A stretch of 64,000 bases of DNA from Candidatus Heimdallarchaeota archaeon (GTDB taxonomy: Archaea > Asgardarchaeota > Heimdallarchaeia > JABLTI01), in the NCBI GenBank assembly GCA_018238155.1, contig JABCTZ010000019.1, positions 32,001-96,000 on the forward strand, read 5' to 3'. Under the pieces are notes generated by a model that saw nothing but the letters and a program-made list of their open reading frames with translations, had not been told where the DNA came from and searched no databases. The position numbers and the translations under genes are program-made. Within the stretch, counting starts at the first letter, position 1; each line of letters starts with the position of its first letter. This document shows, piece after piece, positions 3,374 to 12,418 of this stretch.

Positions 3374-4456
3374 TCACTTCTTCCCTTTTCTTCTTTTTTT
3401 ATCCGGTTCTTTGTAGTTGTTTAGAAATTCATATACTTCTTTCATTAGAATTGATGGTTGAAGAATCGGTATTTCCACTGTTGGTTTGAAATCATTTTCC
3501 TCGGATTTAGATAAGAAACATCTCATTTCATTTTTTGTTAAAGAATCACTAACAAAAGCTCTACTTAAATTCTTTAATCTATGAGCATTTGACAGCTGCT
3601 CAAAATTATTAGTATGTGGTATCATCCAAATATTTTTCTTTGCTATACATGCTTCCCAAGCTAAATTGAACCCTGCATTACCAATAACGTTTTTACATGA
3701 AGTTAAATCTTTAAGAAATCCATCTCGAGATGTCTTCTTAAAGAAAACGTTGTTGCATTTTTCATTAATATTAAATCCATAAACATAAAATATTTCTCCT
3801 GGAAATGTTGATAAAACTTTAATTATTTCATCTTTATCACATCTTGCAAGATACACTAGATTGTGCTTTTCATAAGTGATTTTAAGATCATTAAATTCAG
3901 ATTTCCAAATTAAAGGAAAAAGGCTGTGGTTGTCTACCGCTTGAATTTTATTAACAAAGTCAATTGAAAAACAATGAGAAAAATATGGTGCCATTATCCG
4001 TATAGCAAATTTCATTCCCATTTTTAGAATATTTTTTGCCGGAGCTTCATCATTCGCCGGATGAAAAAGAGATTGCTGATGATCAATACAAACAACGGGT
4101 TTTTTTAAAATCCTACCAACAACCGAAGATGTTGGTTCAAAATCAGTAAAGATTACATCATATTTCTCTGCATTAGTGATTTCTAAGAGGTCTCTTCTAC
4201 TTCTAGTTAGCTTGCCCATTGACCCTAAATTCACTTGTAATGTTTTTGAGACATCCACTTTGTTATCCTTATACATATCAATCGGACCGAGGCGATAAAA
4301 AGCCACAGGAGCAATATCATATGCATATTTTGGAGGTTCCTTTCCTGAAAAAAGGACATGTACTTCATGACCATCTTTCATTAACTCATTAATAATGACC
4401 CTAGAGCGATTAATATGTCCTTGACCATTTGTATTGATGCCATAAAGAATTTTCAT
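3374..4456 (-). CDS. GT-B glycosyltransferase (MJ1255/VC2487-like, GT28-related)
   Basis: MKILYGINTNGQGHINRS, TDFEP, IDHQ, GNAGF..WEA, P...FEQ..NA motifs. Confidence 0.85.
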   Translation of the reverse strand: MKILYGINTNGQGHINRSRVIINELMKDGHEVHVLFSGKEPPKYAYDIAPVAFYRLGPIDMYKDNKVDVSKTLQVNLGSMGKLTRSRRDLLEITNAEKYDVIFTDFEPTSSVVGRILKKPVVCIDHQQSLFHPANDEAPAKNILKMGMKFAIRIMAPYFSHCFSIDFVNKIQAVDNHSLFPLIWKSEFNDLKITYEKHNLVYLARCDKDEIIKVLSTFPGEIFYVYGFNINEKCNNVFFKKTSRDGFLKDLTSCKNVIGNAGFNLAWEACIAKKNIWMIPHTNNFEQLSNAHRLKNLSRAFVSDSLTKNEMRCFLSKSEENDFKPTVEIPILQPSILMKEVYEFLNNYKEPDKKRRKGKK

Positions 4457-6364: not shown

Positions 6365-6545
6365 TCAAACCAAAATTTCAAACCAGTGCTTTCCTTGACT
6401 TAGCTAGGGAATGCTTTATTTAATAAAGGTATTAATACTAAGATGCTCAATTACCAATTGTAGAAAGAAATCACTTTGGATATAAATGGCGGGATAAAAA
6501 ACGGACCCTTGGATTATATTTATAATAATATTTTGTATTACACTA

Positions 6546-7769
6546 TTGATTATTATTATTGCTTCTATAAGAAGAAAGAAGGGAAAAGACAAGAAAACAC
6601 CAACTAAAACAATTCAAGCTTATCTTGAATATGGTGATTTTGTGTCTGCTGGAAGTTTGTATTTGAAACAGAATAAACATGTTGAAGCTTCTAATCTCTA
6701 CTTTCAAATACCTCCTGAAAAAAGACCAAGTTATGAATCAATGATCGTTCAAAAACTAGGGCAACAAGGAGCCCAATTTTTTTGGATTAAAACAGGAAGA
6801 CGATTTGAACGCTCTAATCCTGAAAGAGCACAGATTTCCTTTTTACTTGCAAACGCTTATTTTGATGTCGTGAAAATGTATATTGATACAAATGACGTTT
6901 CTCGAGCAATTAATATTGTAACAAATAATATGCCTGTCAATCTTCGTGCTGGAACTGTAAGAAGATTAGCTCAATATGCTTTCAATAGAGGGAAGTATAC
7001 TATCGCTGGTGATCTTCTAAGAGCTATTAACTTAGGTGAGGAAGCAGATGCTATCCTCGCAGTAGCTGCTCATGAATATGGCGCAATTGAACGCCCACAA
7101 GTTGCTGCAGATATTTATGACTCGGTGGGACGACAAGATTTAGCCGGTGCTTCACAAGAACGTCAAGGTGAAATAGCTTTATCTGAAGGGCGTATTGAAG
7201 CAGCTAAATCTGCTTTTAAGAAAGCTGTAGAAGGTTATGATGGCTCTAATAAACCAAAAGATGCTCTGCGAGTGGAACAAAATTTAGAAAAGTTCGATTT
7301 ACTAGACCGTTTTAGAGAATACGTTACAAAAGGGCAAGTAGATAATGCTGAAGACATGATTGATGCAATATCCTCCAGTTTCCCTGGAATTGCAATTTCT
7401 GATTTATATGCCGAAATTGCTTCCGTTTTGGAGAAAAGCAATCGTACTACTGATGCTATTACATATTATGATAAAGCTGCAGATTCAACAAATAATCCAA
7501 TTAAGAGACAAAGCTATGTAAATTCTCTGCGCAGAATAGGATCACAAATTGCTGCTGAGCCTTCTAAAGGAGAAACTATTGCTACTGAAGATTTCTCAGA
7601 TAGATGTATTGTTTGTAGAGGTTTGATCCGCAAAGGAGATTCATATGTTCTGTGCCCCAATTGCAAGAAACCTGCTCATTACTCGCACTTTCTTGAATTT
7701 GTTAAAGTACGTGGTGTTTGTCCAAACTGTAATATACCTTTGAAGACAGACGATTTAAAAAACGAGTAA
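6546..7769 (+). CDS. Membrane-anchored alpha-helical repeat (solenoid) protein with C-terminal RING-like zinc finger
   Basis: N-terminal hydrophobic stretch then RRKKGK; repeated A..LY/A..IY/YY.KAA helical motifs; C-terminal CIVC-x12-CPNC-x4-HYSH-x10-CPNC. The true start is uncertain (see findings). Confidence 0.75.
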   Translation: MIIIIASIRRKKGKDKKTPTKTIQAYLEYGDFVSAGSLYLKQNKHVEASNLYFQIPPEKRPSYESMIVQKLGQQGAQFFWIKTGRRFERSNPERAQISFLLANAYFDVVKMYIDTNDVSRAINIVTNNMPVNLRAGTVRRLAQYAFNRGKYTIAGDLLRAINLGEEADAILAVAAHEYGAIERPQVAADIYDSVGRQDLAGASQERQGEIALSEGRIEAAKSAFKKAVEGYDGSNKPKDALRVEQNLEKFDLLDRFREYVTKGQVDNAEDMIDAISSSFPGIAISDLYAEIASVLEKSNRTTDAITYYDKAADSTNNPIKRQSYVNSLRRIGSQIAAEPSKGETIATEDFSDRCIVCRGLIRKGDSYVLCPNCKKPAHYSHFLEFVKVRGVCPNCNIPLKTDDLKNE

Positions 7770-7819
7770 TCGCTACTTTAAAATTCATTATTTCTATTTC
7801 ATACTGCGGTTGTTGTATT

Positions 7820-8725
7820 TTGTCCAAAATTAATGCAGAAATATTAGCTACTAAAATAGCAAAGAATTATGATTATGCCTTAAAGTTAAAAGAAGATGAT
7901 ATTAGATCTCTCCTAGCAAAAATTCGTTATTTGCTAAAAAAACAACCTCTTTGTAAAAGAATTAAAACAGGAACTGTTTTAGCTGTAGGAGACATACATG
8001 GTGATTTCAATATGTTGAAAAAAGTAATCACTATTTTTCAAAAGGACAAACAAATTGATCATCTCATTTTCCTTGGAGATATTGTGGATAGGGGTTCTAA
8101 ATCAATTGCCTGTCTGAATCTGATTTTTGCATTAATTATAACACAACCGGATAGAGTTCATTTTCTTCGAGGAAATCATGAAGCAATTACTGTGAACTCT
8201 CGGTATGGTTTTGCAGATGACATTCAAGCATTTGGTGCAGATGAGAATTTATATTTGCTTTTTAATTATGTTTTTAGTGAACTTTCTTTAACACTCGTCC
8301 ATGAAGAACAAAAGATATTTTATGTTCACGGTGGAATTCCAATAAAACCTTGCTTACTAGAAGATATAGATAAACTTCCAAAAGGGGATATGCAGCTAAA
8401 TAACAAAACCATCAAACAATTACTTTGGAATGATCCTAAGAATGAAATTTCACAATACGAATATAGCATAAGAGGAGAAGGAATCTTCAACTATGGTTTA
8501 GAGCTTGTAGAGGAATTTCTAAAAATGAACAATTTAGAAATGATAGTAAGAGCTCACGAAGCGTTTTCTGATGGCTACAAATATTTCTTTGAAAAGAAAG
8601 TCCTAAGTGTCTTCACATCTGAAGAGTATTATGAATATATTAGTGCGAAAATTGCTTTTATTGATGAAAAAAGACAGATAAAGATTTTCCATCCAAGCGA
8701 TTACGAAAATGCTACAATAAGGTAA
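7820..8725 (+). CDS. PPP-family Ser/Thr protein phosphatase
   Basis: GDIHG, GDIVDRG, LRGNHE, HGG, LLWNDP, RAHE, SVFTS..Y. Confidence 0.92.
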   Translation: MSKINAEILATKIAKNYDYALKLKEDDIRSLLAKIRYLLKKQPLCKRIKTGTVLAVGDIHGDFNMLKKVITIFQKDKQIDHLIFLGDIVDRGSKSIACLNLIFALIITQPDRVHFLRGNHEAITVNSRYGFADDIQAFGADENLYLLFNYVFSELSLTLVHEEQKIFYVHGGIPIKPCLLEDIDKLPKGDMQLNNKTIKQLLWNDPKNEISQYEYSIRGEGIFNYGLELVEEFLKMNNLEMIVRAHEAFSDGYKYFFEKKVLSVFTSEEYYEYISAKIAFIDEKRQIKIFHPSDYENATIR

Positions 8726-10816: not shown

Positions 10817-11578
10817 TTATGCTGCAAAGTAATATGTAAGCAATAGTGCAATAAAGAGGATTACTGGTAATCCTGTTGAGATTGTTGCTTCAATCCATGA
10901 GAAATTGTTTACTGGTTTCACCATAAAGACGATGTATACTCCGGAAATTATGAACCCTAAGATATTAATGATTAATCCAAAGATGCCTGCAAAGGAATTT
11001 CGGAATCCAGTCATTGTAAATAAAACATCGCTAAAATTGAAGATATTTGTTCTATTCCATGGTAAAGCAATAATGTACAAAATAGCATTGAATAATGATG
11101 CTAAAGTAAGTGGTAACATACCATAACCTACGACCCCTCGAATCTGTTTTCTTGAAGCTTTACTTCCAAGGAGTCGAGCAGTAGTACGAATAGCAAAGCT
11201 ACCAAATAACCATAAAGACAAAGGAAGTAACATTGAAAAAATCCACATGAAAATAAAAATGATTGGTAATCTCCAGCTGAAGAAATAATTATGCATCAAT
11301 AGAGCGAAAACTTGCAAAGCTATCCCAAAAGCAATTGCAAAGATAAAAAGAATAACTCCTTTTGAATCTGGATTACTTGAAATATCTTGAAAAGCAGATC
11401 GAGGTTTTGTCAACAATGACTTGATTCGACCCCAAACTTCTTTGTAACCAACTGGAGGAAAGATTTTGGTTTCATAGATGGTAGTTAGATCTGCTCCACA
11501 AAAAGGACACAACAAGTATCCTTGGGGAGCGTTTTCTTTGCAAATGGGGCATTGGATTAAAGCTTCATCAGTACTCAT
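10817..11578 (-). CDS. Zinc-ribbon + Yip1-domain membrane protein
   Basis: CPIC...CPFCG ribbon, LTKPRSAF, five hydrophobic segments, ARLLG..AS and GYGMLP typical of Yip1. Confidence 0.75.
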   Translation of the reverse strand: MSTDEALIQCPICKENAPQGYLLCPFCGADLTTIYETKIFPPVGYKEVWGRIKSLLTKPRSAFQDISSNPDSKGVILFIFAIAFGIALQVFALLMHNYFFSWRLPIIFIFMWIFSMLLPLSLWLFGSFAIRTTARLLGSKASRKQIRGVVGYGMLPLTLASLFNAILYIIALPWNRTNIFNFSDVLFTMTGFRNSFAGIFGLIINILGFIISGVYIVFMVKPVNNFSWIEATISTGLPVILFIALLLTYYFAA

Positions 11579-11717: not shown

Positions 11718-12359
11718 ATGAAGAAAATTCTTTTGACGGGCTTTGGTCCTTTTGGAAAAGACTCCATTAATCCTGCTTTATTAGTTGTTCAAGAATTAGA
11801 TAACCAAAAGCTAATTCTAAACAAAGGGAGAAATAATTCTGAAGTAAAAATAGTTTCAAAAGAGCTACCTGTTGTTTTTAGTAAAACAATTAATGAATTT
11901 ATTACCATCGTTGAGACCACTAATCCCGACTTGATTCTCTCAATTGGACAAGCAGGAGGTAGAATGGGTATATCTCTTGAACGAATAGGCATCAATGTAG
12001 CCGATGCAGATATTATTGATAATGAGAAAAACAAACCAAGAGATGAACCAATAATCCGACATGGTCCTGCAGCATACTTTACTACAATAAATATTCGACA
12101 GACCTTTCATGCAATAAAAGAAGCAGGTATTCCTGTAATGATATCAAATTCTGCCGGAACATTCGTTTGTAACAACCTAATATATGGAGCCTTACACTTC
12201 TTTGCTTCTAGTAAAAAATTTACAAAAACTAAATATGGTTTTATTCATATCCCCTATCTTCCTAAACAAGCTGCAGAAAAGAAGAAGATCACTCCTTCTA
12301 TGTCCTTATCTTTAATTAAAAAAGCGATTCTTATTGCAATAAAAGCAAATTTAGGTTAG
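11718..12359 (+). CDS. pcp: Pyroglutamyl-peptidase I
   Basis: LLTGFGPFG..INPA, SIGQAGGR, ER, SAGTFVCN (catalytic Cys), GFIHIP (His); start taken at ATG 11718. Confidence 0.95.
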   Translation: MKKILLTGFGPFGKDSINPALLVVQELDNQKLILNKGRNNSEVKIVSKELPVVFSKTINEFITIVETTNPDLILSIGQAGGRMGISLERIGINVADADIIDNEKNKPRDEPIIRHGPAAYFTTINIRQTFHAIKEAGIPVMISNSAGTFVCNNLIYGALHFFASSKKFTKTKYGFIHIPYLPKQAAEKKKITPSMSLSLIKKAILIAIKANLG

Positions 12360-12418
12360 CTTTTCAAACATACGCATCTTATTTTTTTTATACTTGGAGG
12401 AATACTCTGTAGAATACA

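Follow-up and report, generated by a model that had tools for sequence, protein, structure and literature searches.

The 64,000-nt stretch of heimdallarchaeial DNA analysed here (the window) carries a gene on its forward strand whose product joins a hydrophobic N-terminal helix, a basic cluster, an alpha-solenoid and a terminal RING-type finger. The product is predicted, with slightly better than even confidence, to be a cytoplasm-facing, membrane-bound RING E3 or scaffold/adaptor of the Heimdall ubiquitin system. The prediction builds on the architecture, its conservation, the RING fold at the level of the model, and the fact that the same genome has genes for E2 and ubiquitin. The features are listed below.

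6486..6497, forward strand: mini-ORF of three codons (ATG GCG GGA TAA), overlapping a Shine-Dalgarno-like GGCGGG
6501..6503, forward strand: ACG, putative non-canonical start, from a codon alignment of 8 f1 species
6510..6569, forward strand: N-terminal transmembrane helix (predicted signal anchor) of 20 hydrophobic residues, from the translation
6546..6548, forward strand: TTG, first canonical start after the TAA, annotated 407-aa form
6570..6596, forward strand: basic cluster RRKKGKDKK, from the translation and the orthologue alignment
6603..7076, forward strand: N-terminal half of the solenoid, residues 36-193, IFT-type TPR-like, AF2 pLDDT mostly >90
7098..7556, forward strand: C-terminal half of the solenoid, residues 201-353, canonical TPR-like (Pfam TPR_8, TPR_16, TPR_19, TPR_14, SNAP)
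7605..7730, forward strand: C4H2C2 RING finger (C370 C373 C386 C389 H394 H397 C408 C411), from pattern, profiles and model
7770..7819, forward strand: AT-rich spacer of 50 nt with a TATA-like box (TTTAAAA) and T-runs
7820..8725, forward strand: PP1/PP2A-like PPP Ser/Thr phosphatase of 301 aa (Metallophos 92.6 bits; PP1-gamma E 1.5e-35)

Gene start, membrane anchor and family

In the forward-strand translation one frame is open from 6498 to 7766, and ATG 6486, at which the preliminary description had started the gene, is not the start of the solenoid-RING gene: it is followed by GCG, GGA and an in-frame TAA (6495-6497), and the 6486-6497 stretch aligns with a GGAG/GGTCGG element that precedes the start codon of relatives by 7-10 nt. 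Rescue of this ATG by a -1 or +1 frameshift was rejected, both shifted frames meeting stops; it would be usable solely with read-through of the TAA. In the codon alignment, ACG 6501-6503 occupies the position of the ATG, TTG or GTG start of the orthologues, where the N-terminus of the relatives reads M-[ED]-x-W, and ACG stands at this position in the window and in two sister species. Between ACG and TTG 6546, the two sister species differ from each other in three third codon positions, all of them synonymous, and in one D/E exchange, so the stretch looks translated. Of the possible starts, a putative ACG at this orthologous site requires the fewest assumptions. Databank forms P0001-P0004 start at TTG 6546, which falls within the hydrophobic helix and would leave 7 of its hydrophobic residues; since this is the first canonical start after the TAA, the membrane helix lies outside any canonical ORF in the window. 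The helix and basic cluster described earlier were thus both retrieved from the open frame, but the helix is without a canonical start. It is kept in orthologues of about 419 aa and in distant homologues, and by the positive-inside rule the solenoid and RING body would lie in the cytoplasm and the short N-terminus outside.

The layout recurs in 37 close homologues and in about 10 additional clusters of full-length proteins. Orthologues or homologues of the gene, which is single-copy, are present in 11/11 f1, 22/22 f6, 31/31 f3, 3/3 f4, 9/12 f5, 1/1 f2 and 2/2 f7 genomes, with the closest long-form relatives in f6 (long form in 22/22 genomes). Identity across f1 is about 60%, compared with about 65% for the neighbouring GluRS; the protein is roughly as conserved as an aminoacyl-tRNA synthetase. 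No paper describing the family was found in the literature.

RING finger and ubiquitin system

The terminal C2-C2-H2-C2 finger was recovered as described, with the spacing C-x2-C-x12-C-x2-C-x4-H-x2-H-x10-C-x2-C; all eight zinc ligands are kept without exception in 22 orthologues, and across 52 diverse fingers they vary little or not at all. Searched against solved structures, the finger profile matched RNF24 (E 1.5e-9), Arkadia (1e-7) and the further RING-H2 E3s RNF4, RNF165, EL5, Hrd1 and gp78, and it also matched the RINGs of WDR19 and GATOR2; the finger model superposed on RNF165 with a TM-score of 0.69 and an rmsd of 1.5 Å. By profile and model, the finger is a cross-brace RING of RING-H2 type with the variant ligand set C4H2C2, which answers the earlier question of its cross-brace in the affirmative. 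Prok-RING_1 matched the finger alone with 30.8 bits (cut-off 29.1); zf-RING_2 scored below its cut-off on the window copy (19.7 versus 27.3) and matched 50/52 fingers at E <0.01. Positions usually in contact with an E2 are kept: V372 and P409 are invariant, and position 401, W in most of the family, is F in this protein. The linchpin Arg/Lys position after the last Cys is variable across f1, and K or R in most distant homologues. Many proteins of 74-120 aa bear the same finger.

A ubiquitin is encoded in the genome, and so is a UBC-fold E2 of 157 aa with an HPN motif and a catalytic Cys; this E2 is present in 38/41 genomes of the class. The UBC-fold proteins of the genome number three. When the finger was co-folded with the E2 of its own genome, a score of 0.61 was obtained (best control 0.00; partner pLDDT at least 89; contact agreement between runs at least 0%); of the solved complexes 58/80 attain this mark, and of the mismatched pairs 2/110. 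RING-E2 complexes have already been solved, so the pass may reflect structures that the model already knew. In the predicted pose the RING helix lies on the beta-sheet 'backside' of the E2 (E2 residues 29-30, 44-48 and 55), the three runs disagree, and the canonical E2 surface of helix-1, loop-4 (F68) and loop-7 (P100, A101) is unused. No ubiquitin-system gene was found among the conserved neighbours of the solenoid-RING gene. The RINGs of IFT-A, GATOR2 and HOPS are largely assembly modules. Against a ligase reading it was noted that such assembly RINGs are also matched by the finger, that the linchpin is N in the window, and that the helix has no canonical start.

Solenoid, gene neighbourhood and competing readings

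The helical repeats of the A..LY type, put at about 300 aa in the preliminary description, form an all-helical TPR-clan alpha-solenoid of about 320 aa with tandem helical hairpins (19 helices, residues 36-353, mean pLDDT 84 in the AF2 model). Searched alone, the solenoid exceeded the Pfam cut-offs of TPR_8 (34.9/25.7), TPR_16 (33.6/32.7), TPR_19, TPR_14 and SNAP (30.7/25). The second part of the N-half is the core present in all family members, including short forms of about 300 aa (core versus short forms 98.8%, E 1.4e-16). The two halves differ in their affinities by hhalign: the N-half matched IFT172 with 97.4% (E 9.6e-12, score 80.3; canonical TPR controls 33-45), whereas the C-half matched the canonical TPR family C1 with 95.2% (score 58.3) versus 82% (score 42.7) for IFT172. 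A whole-model structure search of the ESM Atlas returned generic bacterial TPRs alone (TM 0.2-0.34), and superposition on IFT172 and related protocoatomer-type proteins was poor overall (TM 0.2-0.3). The earlier question of whether the repeats are of a special class or generic receives a divided answer: by profile, the N-half appears IFT172-like and the C-half canonical TPR-like.

At the level of profiles, the N-half thus appears closer to the IFT-type (protocoatomer-class) TPRs than canonical TPRs are, and this opens the alternative that the protein is a structural membrane scaffold that shares descent with the protocoatomer-type solenoid plus RING/U-box module (IFT172, IFT-A, HOPS/CORVET, GATOR2), in which the membrane helix would replace the propellers and the RING would serve mainly assembly or ubiquitin binding, with no ligase activity. 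The whole solenoid profile aligned with the IFT172 TPR alignment (120 sequences) at 98.5% (E 2.6e-15, score 112.7, 238 columns), versus 1.5% for the reversed query, and canonical Asgard TPR families scored lower against IFT172 (44-53; 66-69 against the solenoid-RING family). Profiles of f1 only and of distant homologues only each matched IFT172 in an identical register (scores 83.6 and 75.1). Reciprocally, the IFT172 HMM found the solenoid-RING gene as sole match among all 6,520 ORFs of the genome (E 1.2e-5), and a thinner 40-row IFT172 profile had 8 family members among its 15 matches in 81 genomes, although at E up to 0.01 the gene of the window itself was missing from its matches; the 120-row profile does find that gene. 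A eukaryotic IFT172 was also the sole match of a long-protein search of a 5.8-billion-protein library (E 1.6e-4). The matches of the finger to WDR19 and GATOR2 point the same way, as does the U-box-like domain at the end of IFT172 (PMC13290226). In one preprint, 'ciliary TPR proteins' and 'RING-type E3 ligases' appear, with no detail, in a list of Asgard-eukaryote solenoid clusters. Set against this, the IFT172 template was picked after the fact as the best long match, and P0142, the canonical TPR with the best match (88% in a single-sequence comparison), is not among the profile controls. The short forms alone reached 21.6% against IFT172, and the finger against the IFT172 C-terminus a weak 69.5%. 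An unrelated helicase fusion (in G052) contains TPRs of this type too, and repeat proteins converge easily (10.64898/2026.10.28.762692). The protocoatomer-related architecture proposed earlier holds in part: a C-terminal RING or U-box-like zinc domain is present and the N-half may, by profile, be of the IFT class, but the defining N-terminal beta-propeller is absent, the N-terminus being a TM helix with no WD40 match. Homologue and library searches returned no propeller-fused or other long solenoid relatives, which is weak evidence. Long proteins that share the finger carry beta-helix/NosD, LRR, PCI or no known domain, and no propellers. Language-model neighbours (COPI alpha C-terminus, IFT-A families, rapsyn) serve as leads only because all scored <0.9. 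A true evolutionary relationship of the N-half and RING to the IFT172/IFT-A/protocoatomer-derived module is held as a tentative possibility, and the non-ligase scaffold built on such descent is considered rather unlikely.

The membrane-bound RING E3 or adaptor reading was also set against two others that give the protein a different working partner. The co-oriented PPP phosphatase 50 bp downstream is present as described (301 aa, 7820-8725, gap 50 nt) and, by the motifs GDIHG, GDIVDRG, GNHE and HGG and the metallophosphoesterase fold, is a genuine PP1-like PPP. A functional module of the two, in which the protein either brings the phosphatase to the membrane as a scaffold or is an E3 under phosphatase control, would fit the co-orientation, the short gap and the adjacency of both genes in every f1 genome in which the locus is assembled. 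The f1 genomes, however, share a collinear nine-gene block (NIF3-ACS-GluRS-[solenoid-RING gene]-PPP-CitMHS-Yip1-PGP), so that the adjacency of the pair adds nothing beyond background synteny. No genome outside f1 has the two genes side by side; the neighbours there are TmcA and a CDP-alcohol transferase, GluRS and OAD, or UbiA, and conserved partner genes were not found outside f1, GluRS adjacency alone persisting in f2 and f32. PPP orthologues number 0/22 in f6, 2/29 in f3 and 0/2 in f7, all genomes that hold the solenoid-RING family, and in f4, f5 and f2, genomes with both genes carry them on separate contigs or at a distance of 413 kb. The spacer may moreover hold a promoter for the phosphatase, or a terminator, to judge from the TATA-like box and T-runs. 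The phosphatase link of the preliminary description was not supported by the comparison across genomes, and such a module is regarded as very improbable. A LapB/YciM-like membrane-anchored TPR and zinc adaptor, delivering substrates to a membrane protease without ubiquitin, shares the overall layout, and LapB was among the top Foldseek matches (7t6d_B, E 2.6e-5), but the TM-score was just 0.23, the zinc domain here is by prediction a binuclear RING with eight ligands and not a four-Cys rubredoxin, and no LapB-type family match was found in Pfam or NCBIfam; this reading is very improbable.

Predicted role and known counterparts

In the preferred reading, the product would be a single-pass membrane protein with its short N-terminus outside and its body in the cytoplasm, the body comprising a two-part alpha-solenoid of about 320 aa (IFT-like TPR half, then canonical TPR half) and a predicted binuclear cross-brace RING-H2-type finger. 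At the membrane the solenoid would bind its substrates or partners; the RING would recruit ubiquitin-charged E2, most likely as a RING E3 ligase or adaptor within a dispersed Heimdallarchaeial ubiquitin system; the adjacent PPP phosphatase would be an ordinary syntenic neighbour.

Eukaryotic membrane-anchored RING-H2 E3s (RNF24, plant ATL/EL5, RNF13/RMR, Hrd1, gp78) likewise combine an anchor with a cytoplasmic RING-H2-type finger, and it is these proteins that the finger matches best in both sequence and structure; here, however, the ligands are C4H2C2 and not C3H2C3, a 320-aa solenoid stands between anchor and RING, and the ligase role is predicted. Rapsyn (43-kDa receptor-associated protein of the synapse) is a protein of roughly 412 aa with a membrane anchor, about seven TPRs and a RING-H2 at the C-terminus. 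It shares part order and size with the solenoid-RING protein and was among the nearest language-model clusters (0.77, a lead only), but it is anchored by myristoylation and confined to metazoans, unlike the archaeal protein with its TM helix; the likeness is one of architectural analogy. IFT172, the IFT-A subunits (IFT121, 122, 140, 144), HOPS/CORVET and GATOR2 also place a RING/U-box-like zinc domain after a TPR-like solenoid, and IFT172 adds specific reciprocal profile similarity to residues 36-193, whereas IFT172 and IFT-A have beta-propellers and 1,100-1,750 aa in place of a membrane helix and 423 aa. LapB/YciM resembles the protein in its TM helix, TPRs and cytoplasm-facing zinc domain, but it is a bacterial partner of the FtsH protease, and its zinc domain is of the rubredoxin type with a single zinc. 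The small RING finger protein srfp of the Caldiarchaeum Ub-E1-E2-RING operons, an archaeal RING protein with proven E3 activity (PMC5654768), is of the same general RING type, but the finger studied here is fused to an anchor and solenoid, and its gene is not part of a ubiquitin operon.

Should the IFT-type similarity stem from common ancestry, a forerunner or sister of a eukaryotic building block, tethered to the membrane and lacking propellers, would exist in Heimdallarchaeia, and it would give a prokaryotic anchor to the solenoid-RING module of eukaryotic coats, tethers and intraflagellar transport. Membrane-anchored RING E3 ligases are a eukaryotic hallmark and mark membrane cargo for ESCRT sorting, and ubiquitin and ESCRT systems are both found in Asgard archaea. 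Being class-wide, single-copy and well conserved, the solenoid-RING protein is a tangible candidate for the step, so far missing, that selects substrates at the Heimdall membrane.

Reading frame and translation start

The window, G000:C17:32001-96000, derives from a Heimdall-group Asgard MAG (4.08-Mb, GC ~33%). As the preliminary description had it, the membrane helix with its basic cluster, the helical repeats and the terminal finger were found on translation to lie in one frame, open from position 6498 to the stop codon at 7767-7769 (+); in an AlphaFold2 model the solenoid (~320 residues) consisted of 19 stacked helices, for which pLDDT averaged 84, and had a hinge of low confidence at residues 197-202.

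6510-6569 (+), hydrophobic helix of 20 residues (translation)
6570-6596 (+), basic cluster directly after the hydrophobic helix (translation)
7605-7730 (+), finger of 42 residues, C-x2-C-x12-C-x2-C-x4-H-x2-H-x10-C-x2-C (sequence pattern)
7820-8725 (+), PPP phosphatase gene (301 aa), 50 nt downstream of the solenoid-RING gene

ATG 6486, previously taken as the gene start, is directly followed by GCG GGA TAA, an in-frame stop, and was discarded. The first canonical start past this TAA is TTG 6546, where databank forms of the subclade begin (407 aa) and which would keep just seven hydrophobic residues of the membrane helix. In five other species of the family the start is ATG, TTG or GTG, then GAA-xCx-TGG (M-E-x-W), with a GGAG-like element 7-10 nt upstream; the window and two sister species have ACG (6501-6503) at that position, with ATG 6486 sitting within a Shine-Dalgarno-like element. 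The 15 codons before TTG look translated, since the two sister species differ there by three synonymous third-position changes and one D/E change. Initiation is thus putatively assigned, from the sequence, to the non-canonical ACG, or possibly to re-initiation; because the orthologous start is ACG, databank gene calls lose most of the membrane helix. The ATG-GCG-GGA-TAA mini-ORF upstream of ACG is itself conserved in the window (6486-6548) and the two sister species.

RING finger and ubiquitin system

A profile of 52 fingers was compared with solved structures and matched RNF24 (1.5e-9) and Arkadia (1e-7), together with RNF4, RNF165, EL5, RNF126, Hrd1 and gp78; WDR19/IFT144 (7e-5) and GATOR2 RINGs were also matched. 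In the RNF24 alignment, H394 and H397 of the C4H2C2 finger occupy ligand places 5 and 6, and the second ligand pair is C386 and C389, as in PHD and RING-CH fingers. Prok-RING_1 was passed by the finger scanned alone (30.8 against a cut-off of 29.1), and zf-RING_2 matched 50/52 members. On the strength of the RING-H2 matches, the ligand alignment and the Pfam scores, the finger, earlier called RING-like, is assigned as a cross-braced RING. V372 and P409 are invariant; at position 401 most members have W but the window's protein has F, and most distant homologues have K/R at the linchpin position following C411, which is N in the window's protein.

Only one copy of the gene is present in its genome, where related fingers occur in at least 15 further proteins. 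The closest paralogous finger (43% identity) ends a protein of 1012 aa that lacks any significant Pfam domain (G000:C7:202019-205057, L043:1019-4057, minus strand); ORFs of 1013-1022 aa bearing that finger were seen in four other genomes of family f1, to which the window's genome belongs.

The E2 of the genome (157-aa UBC fold, HPN motif and catalytic Cys) is present in 38/41 class genomes; alongside it the genome encodes two further, weaker UBC-fold proteins and a single ubiquitin. It is encoded at G000:C3:20120-20590, beside an inorganic pyrophosphatase and a MetRS-like gene; the sole ubiquitin gene (G000:C1:30547-30741) likewise lies among housekeeping genes. Ubiquitin-system genes are scattered with no operon, and the dispersed E2 and ubiquitin genes are a eukaryote-like arrangement. 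Co-folding of finger and E2 scored 0.61 (best control 0.00) and reached the tool's mark, as do 58/80 solved complexes and 2/110 mismatched pairs, and memory may contribute to this score since RING-E2 complexes have already been solved. Contacts agreed between runs in at least 0%, and partner pLDDT was at least 89. The interface comprised E2 residues 29-30, 44-48 and 55, which by motif alignment to the UBC fold of UbcH5 we take to be the beta-sheet backside. RINGs normally dock on the helix-1, loop-4 and loop-7 surface of E2. Because of its backside interface the model was counted for binding alone, which it mildly supports; it lends no support to the canonical mechanism.

Solenoid and its similarity to IFT proteins

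The C-half of the solenoid (residues 201-353) is canonical TPR by Pfam hits and by hhalign to a canonical Asgard TPR family, C1 (95%). For the N-half (residues 36-193), a PDB profile search returned IFT122B, IFT122, IFT121, IFT144/WDR19 and a fourth IFT-A WD40-repeat subunit, Tetrahymena 8hme_E (3e-5 to 5e-4), with few TPR proteins besides designed CTPRs and P58IPK. Foldseek with the whole model placed IFT-A chains first (E 4e-6, TM just 0.2-0.3), then LapB and OGT. Language-model neighbours (COPI-alpha C-terminus, IFT-A TPR-plus-zinc-finger families, rapsyn) scored 0.77-0.80 and are leads only for that reason. The sole match of a long-protein search of 5.8 billion proteins was eukaryotic IFT172 (E 1.6e-4). 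The IFT-pointing searches of the N-half are partly independent of each other.

Table. Profile-profile comparisons (probability; E; score). IFT172 was chosen as template as the best long match; C1 and C2 are families of canonical TPRs drawn from the same genomes.
Solenoid vs IFT172 alignment (120 sequences, 238 columns): 98.5%; 2.6e-15; 112.7
Reversed solenoid vs IFT172: 1.5%; 0.033; 22.9
N-half alone vs IFT172: 97.4%; 9.6e-12; 80.3
C-half alone vs IFT172: 82%; 1.1e-5; 42.7
f1 members only vs IFT172: 97.3%; 2e-11; 83.6
Distant homologues only vs IFT172: 96.6%; 6.7e-10; 75.1
C1, C2 vs IFT172: 78-89%; 2e-5 to 3e-6; 44-53
Solenoid vs C1, C2: 95-96%; 4e-8 to 5e-9; 66-69

Members of f1 and distant homologues matched IFT172 in the same register, and short forms alone gave no match to it. 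The best canonical single-sequence match to the solenoid was P0142 (88%), compared as a single sequence without profile expansion. Run against the genome's full set of 6,520 ORFs, the IFT172 HMM detected the solenoid-RING gene alone (E 1.2e-5, 23 bits), despite dozens of canonical TPR proteins; in 81 class genomes a thinner profile gave 15 weak matches, 8/15 in this family (one f1, seven f6), and failed to recover the window's own copy. The strongest genomic match of the IFT172 profile (E 4.8e-14) was a 1890-aa Heimdall-class protein (L139:5222-10894, G052:C445) in which an OB-fold and a UvrD-type helicase are joined to a C-terminal TPR domain of IFT140/IFT172 type (PF24762 at 32.7 bits, above cut-off), with prokaryotic neighbours on its contig. 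This kind of TPR is thus also present in a fusion protein unrelated to the solenoid-RING family.

By these sequence comparisons the N-half probably falls in an IFT-like subclass of the TPR clan, its resemblance being more than generic. The proto-coat proposal is supported to this extent, but the C-half is canonical TPR and a beta-propeller is absent from the protein. The finger matched the U-box-like end of IFT172 weakly (69.5%); as that end binds ubiquitin (PMC13290226), the parallel in architecture is a real one. A common origin of the solenoid-RING module and protocoatomer proteins is possible, if improbable.

Distribution, gene neighbourhood and proposed function

Close homologues (n=37, identity 57-87%) are nearly all ~419 aa with a membrane helix, some being named 'E3 ubiquitin protein ligase' or 'PHD finger' at NCBI; about 10 further full-length clusters of the same layout (50% clustering) share 20-26% identity. 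Many short forms of ~300 aa comprise a TM helix, a low-complexity linker, the conserved core and the finger, and short and long forms have a 110-column core in common (hhalign 98.8%, E 1.4e-16). A survey of 400 genomes from the phylum recovered strong orthologues in f1 (11/11); f6 (22/22) and a single f32 genome, G397, have divergent long forms, and f3, f4, f5, f2 and f7 have short ones; outside f1-f7 and G397 there were just finger matches. One f3 genome (G015:C1) carries two short-form genes (L049:9243-10262 and 11831-12382; 340 and 184 aa) separated by 1.6 kb, with two UbiA-family ORFs flanking them.

The phosphatase is genuinely PP1/PP2A-like (Metallophos 92.6 bits, PP1-gamma 1.5e-35, every signature motif present). 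Its proposed coupling to the solenoid-RING protein was not borne out, the pair not being conserved beyond family level. All f1 genomes examined share one collinear block: NIF3, ACS-alpha, ACS-beta, GluRS, solenoid-RING gene, PPP, CitMHS, Yip1 and pyroglutamyl peptidase. Outside f1 the solenoid-RING gene is flanked by unrelated housekeeping genes, GluRS adjacency alone persisting (f2, f32), and where it co-occurs with PPP the two are on separate contigs or at a distance of 413 kb. PPP orthologues were present in f1 (11/11), f5 (11/12), f4 (3/3) and f2 (1/1), and scarce or not found in f3 (2/29), f6 (0/22) and f7 (0/2). Owing to this mismatched distribution, the wholly collinear f1 block and the unrelated neighbours elsewhere, the adjacency is uninformative. 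Within the block, the Yip1-domain membrane protein (10817-11578, minus) has an N-terminal zinc ribbon and is retained in all f1 genomes examined. A Glyco_trans_1_3 glycosyltransferase gene (3374-4456, minus) between ACS-beta and GluRS is missing in G084, G090 and G082, where the block is otherwise collinear, and is therefore a lineage-specific insertion.

The main rival to a ligase function is a structural scaffolding role, with a RING that would act in assembly or in binding ubiquitin, as those of IFT-A, GATOR2 and HOPS do; it is considered rather unlikely. A membrane-bound RING E3 is moderately favoured, resembling the eukaryotic membrane-bound ligases RNF24, ATL and RNF13, with a layout like that of rapsyn. 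As such an E3, the protein would be held in the membrane by its helix with the body on the cytoplasmic side, the solenoid would draw in substrates or partners and the RING would draw in E2-ubiquitin. Likely targets would be membrane or membrane-proximal proteins, possibly feeding, as we infer for this last step, the Asgard ubiquitin-ESCRT link (PMC9192718).
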